In this document: positions 20-31,695 of the stretch, piece after piece
How positions within the stretch are numbered: the first letter of the stretch is position 1
How the letters are laid out: each line of letters begins with the position of its first letter
NCBI GenBank assembly: GCA_015065075.1
Contig: SVRA01000003.1
Location: 1-60,069 of the forward strand
Source of the DNA: Oscillospiraceae bacterium
GTDB lineage: Bacteria; Bacillota; Clostridia; Oscillospirales; CAG-272
DNA: 60,069 nt
Direction of reading: 5' to 3'
Notes under the pieces: generated by a model
What the model was told of the DNA's origin: nothing
Seen by the model: only the letters and a program-made list of their open reading frames with translations
Databases searched by the model: none
Made by a program: the position numbers and the translations under genes

Positions 20-619
20 ATGGCAGAATATATCGAGTCGCTCCAGAAGCTTGCGGAGCAGTTCGGCAGACTTGACGGCGTGGGCAGAAAGAACGCTATG
101 AAAATGGCGTTTTCGGTGCTTGATATGACCGACGAGGAGGCAAGCGAATTCGCCGCGGCTATTCTTGACGCGAAAGCGAAGATACACCTTTGCCCGATCT
201 GTCAGAATATAACCGACAAGGAGGTCTGCCCGATCTGTGCCGACCTGCAAAGAGACAGAAAAACGGTCTGCGTGGTCTCCGACCCCAAGGTCGTCATATC
301 TATGGAAAAGGTAAGGGAATATAAGGGACTTTATCACGTTCTCCACGGAGTTATCTCGCCCACCAACGGCGTCACTCCCGAAAAGCTCAAGATCCGCGAG
401 CTGCTCGCGAGACTTAACGAGGGAGAGATCGAGGAGGTCATAGTTGCGACTAACCCGACGGTCGAGGGAGAGGTCACGGCAATGTACCTTGCCCGTCTAC
501 TCAAGCCGATAGGAATAAAGGTCACACGGCTCGCATACGGCGTGCCTATGGGAAGTGACCTTGAATACGCGGACGAAATAACCCTGTTCCGCGCCCTCGA
601 GGGAAGACGCGATTTTTAA
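20..619 (+). CDS. recR: Recombination mediator RecR
   Basis: HhH (GVGRKNA), C4 zinc finger CPICQN...CPIC, Toprim motifs YHVLHGVISP, ATNPTVEGE, GSDLEYAD. Confidence 0.98.
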   Translation: MAEYIESLQKLAEQFGRLDGVGRKNAMKMAFSVLDMTDEEASEFAAAILDAKAKIHLCPICQNITDKEVCPICADLQRDRKTVCVVSDPKVVISMEKVREYKGLYHVLHGVISPTNGVTPEKLKIRELLARLNEGEIEEVIVATNPTVEGEVTAMYLARLLKPIGIKVTRLAYGVPMGSDLEYADEITLFRALEGRRDF

Positions 620-628
620 AAGCTTAAA

Positions 629-653
629 CGGGCGAACCTTGTTCGCCCATAAG
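629..653 (-). repeat. Degenerate GTAG-family REP-like palindrome
   Basis: CGGGCGAAC-CTT-GTTCGCCC-ATAAG; palindrome resembles GTAG-GGGCG...CGCCC REPs in reverse orientation with a decayed GTAG foot. Confidence 0.45.
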
Positions 654-671
654 TTGTTTTTACCGAATTAT

Positions 672-814
672 CGCCGCAAGCGGCGGATGGAGATCAGCGT
701 GAAGGCGAGGTCACTTTTATAGGTAATTAAACTGCTTCACGCGCGAATTTTGCCGACGAGGCAAAATTCAACGATTACTGTTTGTGCCGCCGCAAGCGGC
801 GGATGGAGATCAGA
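672..814 (+). repeat. Dispersed structured intergenic cassette, family 1, copy 1 (bounded by 26-bp direct repeats)
   Basis: CGCCGCAAGCGGCGGATGGAGATCAG at 672-697 and 788-813; internal GCGTGAA/TTCACGC stem and GAATTTTGCC/GGCAAAATTC hairpin; homologous to 6719-6842 and 31029-31152. Confidence 0.9.
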
Positions 815-1663
815 ATGAAATACATAAACCAAAATTATGACGAAGAACGTGCCCTGTACGGCATCGAAGATGCAGAGATCATAAATTGCACCTTCGCAGG
901 CGAGGCCGACGGCGAAAGTGCGCTAAAGGAGTGCAGACGCATCAAGGTTGAGAGCTGTCTGTTTGAATTGCGTTACCCCTTTTGGCACGTAAACGGCGCA
1001 GAAATATCCAACATCACCATGACCGAGACCTGCCGAGCTGCACTTTGGTACGACGATCACGTAAATATCGAAAAAAGCACGCTCCACGGCATAAAAGCTC
1101 TCCGCGAGTGCAAAAACGTCACGCTTTCCGAGTGCGACGTCGATAGCGCGGAGTTCGGCTGGAGATGCTCGGATATTACCGTCAAAAACACCACCGTTAA
1201 CTCCCAATATCCATTTTTTGAGTGCAAGAATATGCAGCTTTCCGAGTTTACCCTCTCGGGCAAGTATTCCTTCCAATACGTCGAAAACGTCGAGATCAGA
1301 AATTCCCATCTCAAGACCAAGGACGCCTTCTGGCACGCCAAGGACGTTATTGTTTACGACAGCGTCATCGAGGGAGAATATCTCGGCTGGTATTCCGAGA
1401 ATCTGCACCTCGTCCGTTGTCATATCAAGGGCACCCAGCCCCTCTGCTATTGCAAAAATCTTATCCTTGACGACTGCTTGACCGAGGATTGCGACCTCTC
1501 GTTTGAAAACAGCGAGGTCAAAGCGACAGTAAATGGCGATATCGTCAGCGTAAAGAATCCCGTCAGCGGCTTTGTCAGAGCAGATAGCATCGGCGAGATC
1601 ATCTGGGACGAAAAGCATAAAAAAGCATCCACTTGTAAAATAGAGTGCACAGTGAAAATATAA
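815..1663 (+). CDS. DUF3737 family protein (beta-helix-like repeats)
   Basis: ERALYG, DGESALKE, RYPFWH, TKDAFWH, GEYLGW, GTQPLCY motifs; start moved to ATG 815 behind GGAG. Confidence 0.85.
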   Translation: MKYINQNYDEERALYGIEDAEIINCTFAGEADGESALKECRRIKVESCLFELRYPFWHVNGAEISNITMTETCRAALWYDDHVNIEKSTLHGIKALRECKNVTLSECDVDSAEFGWRCSDITVKNTTVNSQYPFFECKNMQLSEFTLSGKYSFQYVENVEIRNSHLKTKDAFWHAKDVIVYDSVIEGEYLGWYSENLHLVRCHIKGTQPLCYCKNLILDDCLTEDCDLSFENSEVKATVNGDIVSVKNPVSGFVRADSIGEIIWDEKHKKASTCKIECTVKI

Positions 1664-5817: not shown

Positions 5818-6681
5818 ATGAGAGATTACGTAATTTTTACAGACTCGTCCTGCGATCTTCCCACTTCCTTGGTAAAGGAATGGGGAATAGAAATACTCTC
5901 GCTTGAGGTAAACATCGAGGGTATTGGAACCTTCCTTAACCACGAGATCGAGCCCGCAAAATTTTACGGATACCTTCGAGACAAGCGCCCCGTAAAGACT
6001 GCTGCGGCAAATATGGAGGGCTTCGTAAATGCATTTGAGAAAATAGTATCCGAGGGCAAGGATATCCTTTATATAGGATTTTCCACGGGACTTTCCGCGA
6101 CCTACGTTGCAGGAAAGAACGCAGCCGAGGAGGTAATGGAAAAGCACCCCGAATGTAAGATCCTCACGGTCGACTCGCTCTGCGCGGCACTCGGTCAGGG
6201 TCTGCTTGTAAAATATGCGGTAGATAAGAAAAACACGGGAGCAACTCTCGAGGAGCTTGCGGCGTACGTCGAGGGACTTAAGCTCAACCTTGCACATTGG
6301 TTCACGGTCGAGGATCTTTTCTTCCTCAAGCGCGGCGGACGCGTATCCGCTGCGACCGCAGTTATGGGAACTGTCCTTCAGATCAAGCCCGTAATGCACG
6401 TTGATAACGACGGAAAGCTTATCAATATGGCAAAGGCGAGGGGCAGAGACGCATCTATCAAGGCTCTCGTTGAAAGAATGAAGCAGACCGTGATTGATCC
6501 CGAAAGGCAGACCGTATATATCTGCCACGGCGACTGCTATGACGATGCAAAGAAGCTTGCCGATATGGTCACCGCTGAATTCGGCATCACCGATATACTT
6601 ATCGACTACGTAGGTCCCGTTATCGGAGCTCATTCGGGTCCCGGCACTCTTGCGCTGTTCTTCATCGGAAGAGAAAGATAA
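5818..6681 (+). CDS. DegV family fatty acid-binding protein (FakB-like)
   Basis: TDSSCDLP, FSTGLSATY, LKRGGRVS, IKPVM, GPVIGAHSGPG. Confidence 0.95.
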   Translation: MRDYVIFTDSSCDLPTSLVKEWGIEILSLEVNIEGIGTFLNHEIEPAKFYGYLRDKRPVKTAAANMEGFVNAFEKIVSEGKDILYIGFSTGLSATYVAGKNAAEEVMEKHPECKILTVDSLCAALGQGLLVKYAVDKKNTGATLEELAAYVEGLKLNLAHWFTVEDLFFLKRGGRVSAATAVMGTVLQIKPVMHVDNDGKLINMAKARGRDASIKALVERMKQTVIDPERQTVYICHGDCYDDAKKLADMVTAEFGITDILIDYVGPVIGAHSGPGTLALFFIGRER

Positions 6682-6718
6682 TACGGTATACTACCGAAGT
6701 CAAAAAATATTTGAGATA

Positions 6719-6842
6719 CCGCACAAGCGGCGTAGTGGAGTTCAGCGTGAAAGGCACTTTGCACTTATAGGCAATTCAACTGCTTCACACACGAATTTTG
6801 CCGATGGCAAAATTCACCGATTATTATTTGTGGAGATATAAA
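6719..6842 (+). repeat. Family 1 cassette, copy 2
   Basis: CCGCACAAGCGG..TGGAG..GCGTGAA..TAGGCAATT..TTCACAC..GAATTTTGCC-GAT-GGCAAAATTC..TTTGTGGAGAT-ATG. Confidence 0.9.
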
Positions 6843-8504
6843 ATGGGTATAACAGGACAATTATATCGCAGTATGGTGCTTTCGGGCGCGGCAATGCTGA
6901 GCGATAGAAAAGAAGAGATAAACAATCTGAACGTGTTTCCAGTTCCCGACGGAGATACGGGTATAAATATGAGCCTTACGATGAGCACGGTAGGACAGGC
7001 GTCCGCAGAGCTCCCCGTAGGCGAGTGTGCCGATAAGGTTGCAGGACTTATGCTTCGTTCGGCAAGAGGAAACAGCGGCGCGATCCTCTCTCTGTTCTTC
7101 AGAGGAATAGGAAAAGCACTCAAGGGCGTATCCGAAGCAGAGCCCAAGGAGCTCGTTGAGGCGTTCAAGAGAGGTACTACCGAAGCATACCGCGCAGTAA
7201 TGAAGCCCACCGAGGGCACGATCCTCACGGTTATGAGAGTAGCGGGCGAGGGAGCTGAAAAGGCATACACTGCGAATAAGAGCATCAGTGTAAACGAGCT
7301 TTTCAAGGTTCTCATCGACAGCGCCGAGGTCGCTCTGGCGCAGACCCCCGATATGCTTCCCGTGCTTAAGCAGACGGGAGTCGTCGACGCAGGCGGTGCA
7401 GGCTTTGTCTGCGTGCTTAAGGGAATGAGAATGGCACTTGAGGGAGATCCTTACGTAGCCAAGAATGCTCCCGTGGACGAGAGCAGCGCACCCGCAGAGG
7501 TCGCAGGCGCGGATTTTGCGGACTTCAATACCGAGGACATCACCTTCGGCTATTGTACCGAATGTATAGTTGACAAAAACGAAAAGTATCTCGGCGAGGA
7601 CACCTCGGGCGAGCTTTACGAGTTTATAAAGAGCATCGGAGACAGCGCCGTGTTCGTAGATGACGAGAGCATCATCAAGCTCCACATACATACGAACGAT
7701 CCGGGCGCAGTTCTCACAAAGGCTATCGAATTTGGAAGTCTTGCAACGGTAAAGATCGAGAATATGAGAAATCAGCATACCGCGCTTACGAGCGAGGCGG
7801 CTGCATCCGAGAGCAACAAGACCGACAAGAAAAAGGTAGCTATTGAGAAGAAGTACGGATTTGTCAGCGTATGTATGGGCGAAGGCGTAAGCGAGATGTT
7901 CCGCGACGTCGGAGTTGATAATATCATCACGGGCGGACAGACTATGAACCCCAGCACGCAGGATATTATCGACGCAGTAATGAAGACCCCCTCCGAGTAC
8001 GTCTTCGTTATGCCTAACAATAAGAATATCTGTATGGTAGCGAGACAGGCATCGGAGATCATCACCGAGCGCAAGGTCGTTGTAATTCCCACGGAGACCG
8101 TGCCTCAGGGTATGGCGGCTATGATCGCGTACAACCCCGATGCAGAGGCAGAGGTCGTCGAAAGGGAAATGAACGACGCGGCAAAGATGGTAACGTCAAT
8201 GTCGGTAACCTTTGCCGTCAGAGATACCGAGATCGACCGCTTCAAGATCAAAAAAGGACAGTTCCTCGGTCTTGTTGAAAACAAGATTGCCTGCGTGAGC
8301 AACGAGAGCTTCGATTGCGTAAAGCAGCTCACCAGAGGAATGACGGGCGCCGTGTACGTCACCGTATTTTACGGCGAGGACGTAAGCGAGGAGACCGCAA
8401 ACAAGGTCGCTGAAATGATCTCGAATAAGGTCGGAGAGAACTGCGAGGTCGCAGTTCTTTACGGCGGCCAGCCCCTCTACGATTATATAATTTCCGTTGA
8501 ATAA
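6843..8504 (+). CDS. fakA: DAK2 domain protein / fatty acid kinase subunit FakA (YloV-like)
   Basis: INNLNVFPVPDGDTGINM, ARGNSG, PTEGTILTV, VDAGG, YCTE, HIHTNDPG, GGQTMNPS, GGQPLY; start moved to 6843. Confidence 0.92.
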   Translation: MGITGQLYRSMVLSGAAMLSDRKEEINNLNVFPVPDGDTGINMSLTMSTVGQASAELPVGECADKVAGLMLRSARGNSGAILSLFFRGIGKALKGVSEAEPKELVEAFKRGTTEAYRAVMKPTEGTILTVMRVAGEGAEKAYTANKSISVNELFKVLIDSAEVALAQTPDMLPVLKQTGVVDAGGAGFVCVLKGMRMALEGDPYVAKNAPVDESSAPAEVAGADFADFNTEDITFGYCTECIVDKNEKYLGEDTSGELYEFIKSIGDSAVFVDDESIIKLHIHTNDPGAVLTKAIEFGSLATVKIENMRNQHTALTSEAAASESNKTDKKKVAIEKKYGFVSVCMGEGVSEMFRDVGVDNIITGGQTMNPSTQDIIDAVMKTPSEYVFVMPNNKNICMVARQASEIITERKVVVIPTETVPQGMAAMIAYNPDAEAEVVEREMNDAAKMVTSMSVTFAVRDTEIDRFKIKKGQFLGLVENKIACVSNESFDCVKQLTRGMTGAVYVTVFYGEDVSEETANKVAEMISNKVGENCEVAVLYGGQPLYDYIISVE

Positions 8505-12134: not shown

Positions 12135-14780
12135 TTATTTCAGCTTTGCGATCGCCGCAACAATACCCTCGAGGTTTTCGCGGTATTTTGCCATCTTCGC
12201 TCTCTCACCCTCAACGACCGCGGCAGGAGCCTTGGCAACGAAGCCCTCGTTGGAAAGCTTCTTTTCGATTCTCTCGATCTCAGCTTCAAGCTTCTTCTTC
12301 TCGCCCTCAAGACGCGCCTTTTCCTTTTCAAAATCAATGATATCGGAAAGCGGCAGATAGATCGTAGCAGAGTCGGTGATTATCTGTACTGCATTGTCTG
12401 CACTGACCTCGTCCTCGGCAAACTTGTCGGCAACGATAAGCTCGGAGGCGGATGCGAGACGTGCAAAGAACGCCTCTGCGGTAGCAAATACGTCAGCGTA
12501 TCTGGTAGCAAGATAAACCTTCGCCTTTTTGGAGGGAGGAACGTTCATCTCGCTTCTGCGCGCTCTGATCGCCTTGATCGCGTCGATGATCTTCGTCATC
12601 TTCTCGGCATCGGCAGAGAAGCAGAGCGACTTGCAAGCCTTAGGATACTCGGAGATCATAATGCTCTCGCACTCGTGAGGCAGAGCCTGATATATCTCCT
12701 CGGTAATAAAGGGCATAAAGGGATGCAGAAGCTTGAGCGTTCCGCAAAGAACGTATGCGATAACGTTCTGGCAGGTAAGATTTGCCTCGGTGTCCTTTTC
12801 GTTAAGACGTGCCTTGGCAAGCTCAATGTACCAGTCGCAGAAGATATCCCAGGTAAATCCGTAGATCGCGCCGAGAGCAACGCCAACCTCAAAGTTGTCA
12901 AGATTGGTAACTACGTTCTCGCAAAGCGCGTTGAATTCGTTGAGTATCCACTTGTCCTCGATCGCGAGCTTGTCGGCATCGGGGAGCTTGATCTCATCAA
13001 TCGTCAGATTCATACGAACGAATCGCGACGCGTTCCAGAGCTTGTTGGCGAAGTTTCTCGCCGCCTCGATCTTCTCGTCGGAGAATCTCATATCGTTTCC
13101 GGGGGAGTTGCCCGTCGCAAGCGCGAAGCGGAGCGCATCCGCGCCGTACTGCTTGATGACCTCAAGAGGATCGATACCGTTACCGAGCGACTTGGACATC
13201 TTACGGCCCTGCGCGTCACGTACGAGACCGTGAATAAATACGGTAGAGAAGGGCTTTGCATCCATGTGCTCAAGACCCGAGAAGATCATACGCGATACCC
13301 AGAAGGTGATTATATCGTATCCCGTAACGAGCACGTCGGTGGGATAATATCTCTTGAGATCCTCGGTCTGCTCGGGCCAGCCGAGAGTAGAGAAGGGCCA
13401 GAGAGCCGACGAGAACCAGGTGTCAAGCACGTCCTCATCCTGATGAACCTTGGCGCCGCACTTGGGGCAGGTGTCAATGTCGACCTTAGAAACGGTCATC
13501 TCGCCGCACTCGTCGCAGTAGAAGGCGGGAATTCTGTGACCCCACCAGAGCTGACGTGAAATGCACCAGTCGAGAATATTGTTCATCCAGTTAAAATAGT
13601 TCTTGGAGAAGCGCTCGGGAACGAAGCTGATCTCGCCGCTCTCAACCGCCTCGATCGCAGGCTTTGCGAGAGGCTTCATCTTAACGAACCACTGGTCACT
13701 CGTGAGGGGCTCGACCGTCGTACCGCAGCGGTAGCAAACGCCAACGTTGTGGTCGTGAGGCTCAACCTTAACGAGATATCCCTCGGCTTCAAGATCGGCA
13801 ACGAGAGCCTTGCGGCAGGCATATCTGTCCATACCCTCGTATTTGCCGGCATAAGCGTTCATGGTCGCATCGTCGTTCATAACCTTGATCTGCTCAAGGT
13901 CGTGTCTCTGACCGACAAGGAAGTCGTTGGGGTCGTGTGCGGGCGTGATCTTAACGCAGCCCGTACCGAAGCCGATCTCAACGTAATCGTCCGCAATAAC
14001 GGGGATTTCTCTGTTAACGATGGGAAGAAGAACCTTCTTGCCGATAAGATGCTTGGTGTTCTCGTCCTCGGGGTTGACCGCGACCGCGGTATCACCGAAC
14101 ATAGTCTCGGGACGGGTGGTAGCAACCTCAACGTAGCCGTCCTCACCGATGATGGGATACTTGATGTGCCAGAAATGTCCGGGCTGATCCTTGTATTCAA
14201 CCTCCGCGTCGGAAAGCGCAGTCAGACAGCGAGGACACCAGTTGATGATACGGTGACCGCGATAGATAAGTCCCTTGTCGTAAAGGTTTACAAAGACCTC
14301 ACGAACCGCCTTGGAGCAGCCCTCGTCCATGGTGAATCTCTGTCTTGTCCAGTCGCACGATGCGCCAAGCTTCTTGAGCTGACCCGTAATGCGAGCCTCG
14401 TATGTGTCCTTCCAGCCCCAAACGCGTTCAAGGAACTTCTCACGACCGAGATCGTAACGGGTAAGACCCTCGTCAACGCGCAGTCTCTCCTCAACCTTGA
14501 TCTGCGTAGCAATGCCCGCGTGGTCGGTACCGGGAACCCAAAGCGTGTTGAAGCCCTGCATTCTCTTGTATCGAACGAGAATGTCCTGCAACGTCTCGTC
14601 AAGCGCGTGACCCATGTGAAGCTGACCTGTGACGTTGGGAGGGGGAATTACTATCGAAAAAGAGGGATTATTGTTGTTCTTGTCGGGCGTGAAATAACCC
14701 TTTTCACACCACTCGGCGTATATCCTGTCCTCAAACTCGGACGGCGAATACGTCTTCGGTAATTCATTGTAACTGTTCAT
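12135..14780 (-). CDS. valS: Valine--tRNA ligase
   Basis: [41 protein letters not shown]-terminal coiled coil. Confidence 0.99.
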
Positions 14781-15219: not shown

Positions 15220-15490
15220 AAAAAAGCCCCGATGTAAAAACATCAGGACGTCAATACGCGGTACCACCTAATTTGCATCTGCCGTAGGGGCGGATTCCAT
15301 ATCCGCCCGAAAAAATCGGACAAACACCACTCAAAAGCTCTAACGTCGCCACCGTCGCAGACTACTCAGCAAAAAAGCCTTCACCCGCACCACTCGCAAG
15401 CTACCTTCAACCGCCGCCTCTGTGGATTTTCACCTGCCATCCACTCTCTGAAAGAGACCTGCGACCTACTCCTCTTGGTCATCGCGTTTA
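15220..15490 (-). promoter_or_regulatory. T-box riboswitch (Val) upstream of valS
   Basis: T-box AATTAGGTGGTACCGCG (15257-15273, minus), AGAGA and GGTGAAA stem I motifs, specifier GAAG-GTA-GC (GUA = Val, 15402-15404), terminator CCTGATGT/ACATCGGGG + T6. Confidence 0.95.
15284..15309 (+). repeat. GTAG-family REP palindrome
   Basis: GTAG-GGGCGGAT-TCCAT-ATCCGCCC-G. Confidence 0.7.
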
Positions 15491-15503
15491 AATATGATAA
15501 CAC

Positions 15504-18915: not shown

Positions 18916-18991
18916 GCTGGTATGGCTCAGTCGGTAGAGCACGTCATTGGTAATGACGAGGTCATCAGTTCGATTCTGATTACCAGCTCCA
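18916..18991 (+). tRNA. tRNA-Thr(GGT)
   Basis: 76 nt; acceptor GCTGGTA/TACCAGC, D arm GCTC/GAGC, anticodon arm CGTCA-TTGGTAA-TGACG, T arm ATCAG-TTCGATT-CTGAT, encoded CCA. Confidence 0.98.
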
Positions 18992-30449: not shown

Positions 30450-31049
30450 ATGCCTGAACTCAAGAAGAACGATCAGAGCGAGACCGCAAAGAATCTGAAA
30501 AAGGCAGATTCCGAAAAATCATTAGGCGGTACGCAGATTGATTACATAGTTGGGCTTCGCGGTGTAAAAGCGAAGGATCCGACAGAAAGCGAAAAAACCC
30601 GTAAAGCAAAGGCGCGTAAAAAGCTTCCGCTGGCAGTAGATATTATAATAACCCTGTTGATGCTGGCACTGATAGTGGGAGTAATAGTTGGAGCTTATTA
30701 TCTGTTCAGATATTTCTCCACGGATTATGAAAGCGTGAATATCGAGTATTCCTTTGCCATCTCGTGTGAAGAAAACGCCGCTGAATATCAAAAGGTGTTG
30801 AATAAAGAGCTCTATTTTGACATAGATGGCAGTACCGTGTATTTTGGAAAGATAAAGTCAATTTCTGTTTCCGAGGATAATACGCTTGCGGTATTGACCG
30901 TAGAGGTCACGGCAATCCATAAGGCAGATGCGGGATATTATCTTGGAGAAAACAGAGTAGCAGTTGGAAGCGACTATACTCTCAGGATCGAGGATCAAAA
31001 AATAGACGGAACCGTTGTCGAACTTACGGGAGGTTTGCGTGAAAGTTGA
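30450..31049 (+). CDS. Single-TM protein, DUF4330-like
   Basis: VDIIITLL TM, FGKIKSI, GYYLGENRVAVGS..LR. Confidence 0.6.
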   Translation: MPELKKNDQSETAKNLKKADSEKSLGGTQIDYIVGLRGVKAKDPTESEKTRKAKARKKLPLAVDIIITLLMLALIVGVIVGAYYLFRYFSTDYESVNIEYSFAISCEENAAEYQKVLNKELYFDIDGSTVYFGKIKSISVSEDNTLAVLTVEVTAIHKADAGYYLGENRVAVGSDYTLRIEDQKIDGTVVELTGGLRES

Positions 31050-31152
31050 TTCCTACCATTAGGTAATTATGCTTTTTCACGCGAGAAATTTGCCGTTGGC
31101 AAAATTCGCAAATCATATTTGTGCCGCTGCACGCGGCGGAATGGAGATTAAA
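31029..31152 (+). repeat. Family 1 cassette, copy 3
   Basis: GGAG..GCGTGAAA..TAGGTAATT..TTTCACGC..GAAATTTGCC-GTT-GGCAAAATTC..TTTGTGCCGC..GCGGCGGAATGGAGAT-ATG. Confidence 0.88.
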
Positions 31153-31695
31153 ATGGCAGAAAAGCGCAAAAGATCGGGTAGAAGAATAACCGCGTTCGAT
31201 ATAATGGTGATATTGCTCGTCCTTTGCCTTATCGGGACGGTAGTATACAGAGTGTATACCGAAATCGACAACGACAAAGCGGGCATCACGTCAAAATATT
31301 CAATTGAATTTGAGTGCGAGGATTACGATAGTCTTGCAAAATATCTTTTAGACGAAGAGGAGGTATACCTTGCCTCAAACGGCAGACTCCTTGGAGAGAT
31401 ATATAAGGGTTGGAACGACGCTCAGGCGATATACGTTGAGTATTCCGACACGGAAGGCACAGAGCAGACCGAGTCGGGAAATGACGAGCAATCAGCAAAA
31501 AATGAGACGGCGGTGTCGTACCGAATGGCAAAAATGACGGGAAAAATGCGTCTGAACTTAGAGGTTTTGGCATCAAAGGAAGGAAACTACTATTCGTTGG
31601 GAGAAGTCAACTTTTCCAAGGGGAGCGTGATAGACGTATATACCGACGATGCGGAGTTTACGATAACTATAACAAGCATAACCGCAACTAAATAA
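31153..31695 (+). CDS. Single-TM protein, DUF4330-like paralog
   Basis: FDIMVILL TM, GRLLGEI, YYSLGEVNFSKGS; start moved to 31153. Confidence 0.6.
   Translation: MAEKRKRSGRRITAFDIMVILLVLCLIGTVVYRVYTEIDNDKAGITSKYSIEFECEDYDSLAKYLLDEEEVYLASNGRLLGEIYKGWNDAQAIYVEYSDTEGTEQTESGNDEQSAKNETAVSYRMAKMTGKMRLNLEVLASKEGNYYSLGEVNFSKGSVIDVYTDDAEFTITITSITATK

Follow-up and report, generated by a model that had tools for sequence, protein, structure and literature searches.

Three unrelated genes preceded by one repeat: a probable case of a once-mobile ribosome binding site cassette, now a constrained leader in uncultured gut Clostridia

What is the same short element doing immediately in front of three genes with unrelated functions, and how did it come to lie there? 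The question is raised by a 60,069-nucleotide (nt) stretch of DNA (contig SVRA01000003.1, positions 1 to 60,069), here called the window, from the draft assembly GCA_015065075.1 of an Oscillospiraceae bacterium. This source genome comprises 1.84 Mb in 126 contigs and is ~75% complete, with a contamination estimate of 3.76%; the assemblies with which it was compared are drafts of 30 to 350 contigs, and such drafts often lose insertion sequences. The original prediction, made from the letters of the window, was of a mobile or domesticated translational leader. Our analysis indicates that the element is probably a historically mobile ribosome binding site (RBS) cassette, which is now a constrained leader of unrelated genes in a family of uncultured gut Clostridia.

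All three copies are on the plus strand, copy 1 at 672 to 814, copy 2 at 6719 to 6842, and copy 3 at 31029 to 31152, and the downstream ATG codons begin at 815, 6843, and 31153, respectively. They share a layout in which a host Shine-Dalgarno (SD) sequence is followed by a GTG lying in the stem of a first hairpin (P1), a second hairpin (P2), an AU-rich linker, a GC hairpin (P3), the sequence GGAATGGAGAT, and the ATG of the gene. In the window copies, P1 is GCGTGAA(A/G) paired with (C)TTCAC(G/A)C around ~30 variable bases; P2 is a perfect 10-bp hairpin, GAA(T/A)TTTGCC-loop-GGCAAAATTC; the linker is unpaired and ends in TTTGTG; and P3, GCCGC/GCGGC, is absent from copy 2 and elsewhere precedes a final GGAGAT, which copy 2 also has. 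The original prediction had placed the three sense-strand elements correctly and had given the same order of motifs, from GGAG through P1, P2, TTTGTG, P3, and GGAGAT to the ATG, with P3 missing at the 3' end of copy 2. Calculated minimum free energies for copies 1, 2, and 3 were −45.1, −25.8, and −40.1 kcal/mol (z scores of −3.9, −2.1, and −3.3).

In one detail copy 1 departs from the original description: it has 1.2 units. Its extra partial unit (672 to 697, plus strand), with a P3-type GC hairpin at 672 to 685 and a GGAG at 689 to 692, is a 26-nt direct repeat of 786 to 811 (a 100% self-match to positions 117 to 142 of the query); at this position relatives carry the native SD, AAGGAAGT, instead. 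P1 of copy 1 spans 697 to 742, with the arms GCGTGAAG (697 to 704) and CTTCACGC (735 to 742) enclosing a variable inner hairpin, and its GTG (699 to 701) opens an 8-codon frame, seven sense codons and a stop, which ends with the TAG at 720 to 722. There follow P2 (745 to 769; GAATTTTGCC, loop GACGA, GGCAAAATTC), the unpaired AU-rich linker AACGATTACTGTTTGTG (770 to 786), and a last segment (787 to 817) made up of P3 (787 to 802), the element's SD, GGAG (805 to 808), a 6-nt spacer, and the ATG of the DUF3737 gene (815 to 817). Copy 2, which together with the start codon of fakA spans 6719 to 6845 of the plus strand, begins with a decayed upstream P3 and SD (6719 to 6742; GGAG at 6737 to 6740) and continues with the P1 arms (6745 to 6753 and 6783 to 6790), P2 (6793 to 6815), and the linker (6816 to 6832); the SD, GGAG, is at 6832 to 6835, and the fakA ATG is at 6843 to 6845. 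Copy 3 (31029 to 31155 with its start codon, plus strand) has the host SD, GGAG, at 31029 to 31032, P1 arms at 31037 to 31045 and 31072 to 31082, P2 at 31085 to 31107, the linker at 31108 to 31123, P3 at 31124 to 31138, the SD, GGAG, at 31143 to 31146, and the ATG at 31153 to 31155. Pfam identifies the flanking genes as predicted: RecR and then DUF3737 around copy 1, DegV and then FakA around copy 2, and around copy 3 two proteins whose DUF4330 matches are weak (E values of 3e-5 and 2e-4, both below the Pfam cutoff). Copies 1 and 2 lie between genes, as had been proposed, but the open reading frame (ORF) upstream of copy 3 stops at 31047 to 31049, inside P1 of the element.

The three copies belong to one family of short structured interspersed repeats; all three are real, but a count of three understates a family that spans many genera. 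A covariance model trained on 25 copies, with genome matches counted at E values up to 0.01, found 53 matches in the source genome, and an iterated nhmmer search found 55, of which 40 were near full length. With the covariance model, 22 of 24 other species of the genus were positive (1 to 62 matches each; five close relatives have 30 to 43 each), as were, in diverged forms, 27 of 120 other genomes of the same family, representing 25 of 97 genera, with 13 to 67 matches in single genomes; 16 genomes representing 16 other families of the order gave no match. Three of the high-copy genomes of the genus are near complete (G041, G042, and G045, 96 to 98% complete, with 35 to 43 copies each), and together with G012, G016, G021, and G007 they make up a set of seven genomes with 30 to 62 copies each. 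An exact-pattern scan of 185,579 species genomes found at least 108 stretches, nearly all in uncultured gut assemblies labeled "Clostridia" or "Eubacteriales"; ~6 singletons in unrelated phyla are close to the ~9 chance matches that we estimated by hand. One exact match in viral contigs lay inside an ORF and had no model match, and was taken as chance; a blastn search against plasmids and phages gave no match. The family was not found among described ones either. A scan of the window against Rfam 15 at gathering thresholds matched a T-box and a tRNA elsewhere but nothing on the element, and the original prediction, too, had not recognized the structure as a known riboswitch; an E-value scan of positions 600 to 900 gave only sub-threshold noise; and ten loci from other genera had no Rfam match at E values up to 0.01. 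We found no description of the element in the literature, supplements not being covered.

The copies are placed with respect to genes in a way that is far beyond chance. Among the 46 source-genome matches that include the 3' SD, an ORF start (counted for ORFs of at least 50 amino acids) lies 4 to 9 nt after the GGAG in 40, and at exactly 6 nt in 29; of the six that do not fit, four are internal units of tandem arrays, one lies at a contig end, and one is a degenerate copy with a mutated SD. Of 5,000 random GGAG sites scored by the same criterion, 751 had such an ORF start. In five other genera, an ORF start is found at the same place after 29 of 30 copies. Because copies precede ORF starts in this manner, every copy is sense oriented. 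The GC skew of the sense strand is positive at 31 of 42 loci, compared with 64% for all genes (P = 0.26), so orientation follows genes, not replication. The search for copies with random orientation or random distance to start codons, which had been suggested as a check on the prediction, thus showed that both are kept, and the description as a portable RBS is borne out: the element brings a GGAG, mostly 6 nt before the start codon, to functionally unrelated genes. The label "intra-operon" fits only in part. A co-oriented upstream ORF is present at ~30 of 49 loci, 15 of these ORFs running into the first bases of the element or stopping ~20 nt or less before it, but at the remaining loci, a third or more, the element lies in a leader after a divergent gene or a gap (these classes rest on a crude ORF call, and the divergent class includes shadow ORFs, of which copy 2 is one). 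Since these loci follow a divergent gene or gap, the element is an RBS-associated repeat and not only an intra-operon one.

The genes downstream are diverse. A sample of 20 from the source genome includes DUF3737, FakA, a phosphoglucomutase-type enzyme, CysRS, an oxidoreductase, diaminopimelate dehydrogenase, two sigma factors, an EPSP-synthase-fold enzyme, a creatininase-family protein, a CAAX protease, RNase III, and an aminotransferase. A sample of 20 from other genera includes NusB, GroEL, RuvA, HPr, an ammonium transporter (AmtB), D-Tyr-tRNA deacylase, PfkB kinases, and transketolase. The two samples have no Pfam family in common, which argues against a functional regulon.

A mobile origin is indicated by orthologous sites that are filled in some species and empty in others, as the original prediction had anticipated in proposing a search for loci without the cassette. 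At the recR-DUF3737 site, 23 species were resolved: 19 have a short ordinary intergenic region and 4 are filled. The empty site of G007, with flanks 90 to 96.5% identical to the window, reads AAGGAAGT-TACAA-ATG, while filled sites contain one unit without P3 (G016), one unit (G042), two tandem units (G045), or 2.3 units (G041), compared with 1.2 units in the window. At the fakA site, the full element is present in G045, G041, G016, and G007, and G042 has only TTTGTG-P3-GGAATGGAGAT before the ATG. Copy 3 has an orthologous copy in G045 (L309). Conversely, 15 sites that are filled in relatives carry a plain short RBS in the source genome. When 26 G045 copies were compared with the source genome, the site was empty in 10 cases, filled at the same length in 7, filled by a variant in 2, and unresolved in 7. 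At one RBS (the orthologue of C11:1525), three species share one orthologous copy and a fourth species has a different variant, which points to repeated use of the same site. Tandem number ranges from 0 to 2.5 units at one site among species, and contig C12 carries three tandem units. Since very recent copying has left no trace, the differences between species may mix old insertions, losses, and allele exchange.

Two observations on the assemblies accompany these comparisons. A second version of recR-DUF3737 is present in the source assembly (C125:1-1014), 93% identical to window positions 200 to 1300 and with 2.3 tandem units instead of 1.2; because both versions occur in the same draft, the bin seems to mix two strains or close species. 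In addition, identity between the window and G045 is 91 to 95% at the recR locus (200 to 1300) and 99% at the fakA locus (6250 to 7350), ~6 kb apart, and this difference suggests recombination between species of the genus, the genomes being mosaic.

The junctions show that the element replaces the spacer of an existing RBS. The 5' junction is 1 to 3 nt after the host SD, and a host SD-like motif stands 6 to 8 nt before the P1 GTG in most copies; the 3' end is the element's GGAGAT, followed by 3 to 5 nt and the ATG. In many cases the empty allele has the same three bases in front of its start codon. Apart from the three pairs with a shortened spacer given below, the pairs that were read again have a spacer of 6 to 7 nt after the SD. 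We considered whether empty sites could be products of simple SD-to-SD deletion and rejected this, as the spacers at C69, C11, C12, and C64 do not match the predicted products.

Conservation in place was examined in orthologous copies. In 23 orthologous copy pairs, from 17 loci of the source genome, the 70 conserved columns of the model are 96.4% identical (1,381/1,432 positions) and the 21 variable columns 88.7% (402/453); in the adjacent genes, third codon positions are 85.2% identical (2,151/2,526, with 375 differing) and first and second positions 97.2% (4,911/5,051). The differences are unevenly distributed over the element. In P1 they number 1 in 196 positions of the 5' arm, 14 in 252 of the 3' arm, and 65 in 642 of the interior; in P2, 8 in 230, 10 in 228, and, in the loop, 17 in 112; and in P3, 4 in 131, 2 in 96, and, in the loop, 13 in 69. 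The linker has 11 in 321, and the SD region has none in 136. Thus, the P2 and P3 loops differ at 15 to 19% of positions and the stems and linker at 0.5 to 5.6%; stems, linker, and SD change ~4 times more slowly than neighboring third codon positions, and the loops diverge about as fast as third positions do. The simpler reading is purifying selection acting locus by locus, rather than gene conversion among paralogues, because conversion should homogenize the loops too, and the loops drift. That these parts are maintained where the element sits fits the description "domesticated" in the original prediction.

Among copies from the genus, variation in the stems is too slight to say much about covariation. 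We therefore turned to a family-wide alignment of 46 sequences with 23 base pairs. Compensatory changes on both sides occur in 15 of the 23 pairs, in 103 cells compared with 28.1 in shuffles, and none of 500 shuffles reached this value. Across genera all nine P2 pairs covary, and the P2 arms can be read directly as different complementary sequences in different genera. Overall, 96.7% of cells are paired, against 31 to 49% with the partners slid, in an alignment that was fitted to the structure of the model, which favors pairing. What is kept as sequence across genera is P1 (GCGTGAAA/TTTCACGC), the linker end TATTTG.G, P3 (CCGCC/GGCGG), and ATGGAG.

Several results weigh against a once-mobile cassette that is now selected as a leader RNA. 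The conservation estimate was made on copies found with a profile, so that decayed ones could be missed; the resolved sites scored as empty or filled were ~150 nt or ~35 to 45 nt long, and none resembled a decayed remnant. The sense and antisense strands fold equally well; G-U and A-C combinations number 31 and 25, giving no signal of selection at the RNA level; and changes from a standard pair in orthologues went to G-U 20 times and to A-C 16 times, again with no strand signal. On the side of mobility, no target-site duplication was seen in 15 pairs of empty and filled sites, and the native spacer was shortened by 3 to 5 nt in the C69, C11, and C12 pairs, whose flanks are 96 to 100% identical, neither of which fits a simple insertion. 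No trace of recent copy-and-paste was found among 30 copies sampled from G045, and no Y1 transposase, reverse transcriptase, or IS110 transposase was found in near-complete G041, G042, and G045.

The rival that survives best, although we consider it unlikely, is a selfish non-autonomous DNA repeat resembling miniature inverted-repeat transposable elements (MITEs), repetitive extragenic palindromes (REPs), or PATEs, the hairpins of which would be transposase recognition sites. The RBS position would then reflect target preference together with the removal of harmful insertions, and the RNA would have no role beyond harmlessness. In its favor, the element is multicopy and dispersed, its copy number varies between species, and it occurs in tandem arrays and module variants; the palindromes are symmetric, with no G-U excess on the sense strand, and the most conserved sequence is in the two end hairpins, P1 and P3, whereas P2, in the middle, differs from genus to genus. 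However, dead copies should decay evenly, and orthologous stems and linkers are kept ~4 times better than third positions while the loops drift. Besides the target duplication, terminal inverted repeats are missing, since CAGCGTGAA at the 5' end is not complementary to GGAATGGAGAT at the 3' end and the inverted repeats are internal hairpins; orientation is tied to the gene and not to replication; and no near-identical paralogues were seen, the nearest among the 30 G045 copies being 57 to 86% identical, with only tandem neighbors closer (90 to 99%).

The searches for a mobilizing enzyme bear on the same rival. The Y1 transposase family PF01797 was matched in 18 of 39 genomes of the genus but in none of the seven genomes with 30 to 62 copies (G041, G042, G045, G012, G016, G021, and G007), while G010, which has no copies, has four matches. 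Y1 and IS110 transposases were rejected as mobilizers, since neither tracks copy number. Retro-copying had been suggested by copies that are truncated at the 5' end but intact at the 3' end; the near-complete high-copy genomes have no reverse transcriptase, and selection for the 3' SD explains the truncated copies equally well. A search for a Y2 transposase was uninformative, its control having matched nothing anywhere. As for a longer autonomous element, no pair of matches split by a gene-sized insert was found in the draft contigs of the source genome, a kind of assembly that often loses insertion sequences.

A second rival, which we judge improbable, is a cis-regulatory leader RNA through which a protein, small RNA, or ligand controls 40 to 60 genes per genome, the spread of the element amounting to rewiring of a regulon. 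The fixed place in 5' leaders beside the SD and the purifying selection in place are as expected of such a leader, and the conserved unpaired linker with the sequence-conserved P1 and P3 would suit a trans-acting binder; in addition, ~17 of 29 species of the genus keep a lone hairpin followed by GGAATGGAGAT before fakA. Yet the downstream genes have no function in common and are not the same ones from genus to genus or even in close species, Rfam offers no match, and no candidate binding partner was identified. A switch is equally hard to find in the RNA, and on this point the original prediction, which had suggested an attenuator, is not supported. The sense strand of the three window copies has no terminator-like site, no alternative fold or pairing hides the SD consistently, no anti-SD stretch is conserved across subfamilies or genera, and the SD is unpaired or weakly paired in predicted folds. 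Pairing of the SD by a TCCAT in P1 was considered and discarded, being confined to one subfamily and absent in other genera. An internal promoter was discarded as well; among the window copies a weak TTGCCG-18-TATTAT is confined to copy 2, and P2 is not the same in other genera.

The weakest rival, a coding role in which the P1 GTG frame yields a functional leader peptide or the unit is translated into the downstream protein as extra N-terminal sequence, is very improbable: it can point to the host SD before the GTG in most copies, to the GTG-bearing 5' arm of P1 as the most conserved part of the element (1 difference in 196), and to one copy (G150, L262) that by eye is open from the GTG into the gene, but the frame stops after 6 to 9 codons at varying places in what is the element's most variable part, the upstream SD has decayed in two orthologous fakA copies, units of 100, 116, and 117 nt are not multiples of three, and read-through fails in L267, the one other copy checked from that genome. 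Because the frame stops early and has a variable sequence, and its upstream SD has decayed in those two fakA orthologues, it is probably a by-product of landing just after a host SD.

We therefore return to the RBS cassette and ask how it could work. The repeat would in the past have spread to the RBSs of many unrelated genes, each copy filling the space between the original SD of a gene and its start codon, and the replacement SD, GGAATGGAGAT, mostly 6 nt before the ATG, would keep the gene translatable. The copy would be transcribed within the mRNA, where P1, P2, and P3 would fold independently and leave the AU-rich linker and the new SD single-stranded, creating a self-contained translation start insulated from its context. 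The old SD would face the GTG of P1, which opens a frame of only a few codons. Ribosome loading or protection of the 5' end might plausibly be helped by the AU-rich linker and by P3, which immediately precedes the SD, and P1 and P2 could form a processing site between cistrons. Judging from sequence, then, the hairpins may act in RNA by insulation, by 5' protection before the SD, or as an inter-cistron processing site.

How the cassette reached its sites is a matter for conjecture. Rather than classical cut-and-paste transposition, our guess is that a host enzyme or some other one recombined the element into place, using the SD and start-codon region at both ends; unequal exchange between repeated SD modules might then have produced the tandem arrays and partial units. 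MITE, REP and REP-associated transposase (RAYT), IS200/IS605, IS110, and retro-copying mechanisms are disfavored because there are no terminal repeats or duplications, the spacer is replaced, the orientation is tied to the gene, and genes for Y1 transposase, reverse transcriptase, and IS110 transposase are absent from near-complete, high-copy G041, G042, and G045. It is possible, if speculative, that we are dealing with a new mobile element that homes to translation start regions by recognizing the SD and start-codon region itself, swaps the spacer for a structured cassette with a fresh SD, does so without a transposase of a known family, and is kept by the host as a working, insulated leader throughout a family of gut Clostridia. 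If this were true, part of the translation-start landscape of these genomes would have been built from one repeat.

The SD region gave two further observations. An ATG inside GGAATGGAG (window positions 803 to 817, present in most copies) usually shares the reading frame of the true start, which lies 12 nt further on, and a naive ORF call at this ATG adds four residues (MEIK-like) to many proteins; gene callers may thus take it as the start codon. We also looked for the 3' end of 16S rRNA, in case an unusual anti-SD matched GGAATGGAG, but the draft genome contains no 16S gene.

The element also varies in its modules. Four copies (C119:3610-3790, C48:11382-11562, C7:21182-21361, and C15:21520-21699) share a hairpin-forming insert of ~45 nt in the P3 loop, matches of ~180 nt like these four are found in relatives, and P2 of other genera encloses two nested hairpins; the loops of the element seem to accept further small palindromic modules. 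In five other species of the genus (L238, L239, L241, L242, and L243), the degV-fakA spacer is occupied by a different repeat of ~180 to 200 nt, with ~2.5 tandem units in L243, after which come a hairpin and GGAATGGAGAT module and then fakA; the spacer seems to be a hot spot at which several repeat families have settled. The fakA orthologues with a lone hairpin mentioned above (L236, L238 to L244, L246, L248, L249, L253, L255, L257, L258, and L260) have a hairpin whose sequence differs between them and, after it, GG(A)ATGGAGAT with almost no variation. In the source genome, GGCGGAATGGAG occurs 24 times, 22 of them before an ORF start. P3 with its SD may form an older module that moves, or is conserved, independently.

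Elsewhere in the window, a T-box leader at 15241 to 15491 (minus strand, 115.9 bits) lies upstream of an 881-amino-acid ORF (12135 to 14780, minus strand), presumably an aminoacyl-tRNA synthetase, and a tRNA gene lies at 18916 to 18988 (plus strand). Contigs assembled from four DNA runs break inside copy 1 and span copy 2 (X7, X11, and X16), and none of them contains a joint that skips an element; short-read contigs, in other words, break at element copies.

Repeats dispersed through a genome tend to be dismissed as junk or as a nuisance in assembly. Here, one repeat family supplies the predicted RBS of roughly 40 genes in the source genome, among them the housekeeping genes for CysRS, FakA, and RNase III, and in other genera the housekeeping genes for GroEL, NusB, and RuvA have an element RBS, in many genera of an abundant uncultured gut lineage. 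It would be a naturally occurring RBS part, portable and insulated by its structure, and it raises the question of what recognizes an RBS as an insertion site.

Among known systems, Correia repeats of Neisseria and ERIC repeats of enterobacteria alter the expression of neighboring genes and are alike in concept: lying between genes and transcribed, they provide unrelated genes with expression signals or sites for RNA processing; both are MITE-like, with terminal inverted repeats. The present element, in contrast to these and to MITEs generally, has neither terminal inverted repeats nor a target-site duplication, and it brings an RBS, not a promoter. REP/REPIN and IS200/IS605-derived palindromes are similar to it in being short palindromic units of high copy number, with hairpins near their ends and without terminal inverted repeats or target duplications. 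The usual place of REPs, however, is downstream of genes, and the element lies before start codons; unlike the REP/RAYT system, it has no Y1 transposase in the seven genomes with 30 to 62 copies; and unlike IS200/IS605-type elements, its orientation follows genes and not GC skew.

Pneumococcal BOX elements, a looser parallel than the mycobacterial one described below, are built of the modules boxA, boxB, and boxC, and our element shows a comparable modularity, with copies lacking P3, a lone P3 and SD, or a 45-nt insert inside P3. With BOX, RUP, and SPRITE it shares the character of a small structured interspersed repeat in a Firmicute. According to the part of the account available to us, these repeats occur in the species and its close relatives and are cotranscribed with their neighbors, and ORFs formed by BOX elements lack good SD candidates (PMC3049150). 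The likeness is drawn from descriptions of these repeats; the SD is the most conserved part of our element, which also has a fixed distance to start codons, and no such fixed distance is reported for BOX, RUP, or SPRITE in that part of PMC3049150.

The closest analogue is the mycobacterial interspersed repetitive unit (MIRU). As far as the available part of the source describes it, MIRU is mobile and inserts at start codons while sparing expression of the target gene, which is kept by an internal ORF coupled to the gene through a 4-nt overlap (PMC12548453). Both are short repeats found between operon genes in one orientation to transcription and in variable tandem number, our element having 0, 1, 1.2, 2, or 2.3 units at the recR site among species. 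The comparison is by description, and it shows differences as well: the element is found in a different host phylum, has three hairpins, and has no unit-spanning ORF (the GTG frame ends ~85 nt before the ATG), carrying instead its own SD 6 nt before the ATG. Alongside MIRU, this would make two repeats, different in mechanism, that target the starts of genes and do not silence them.

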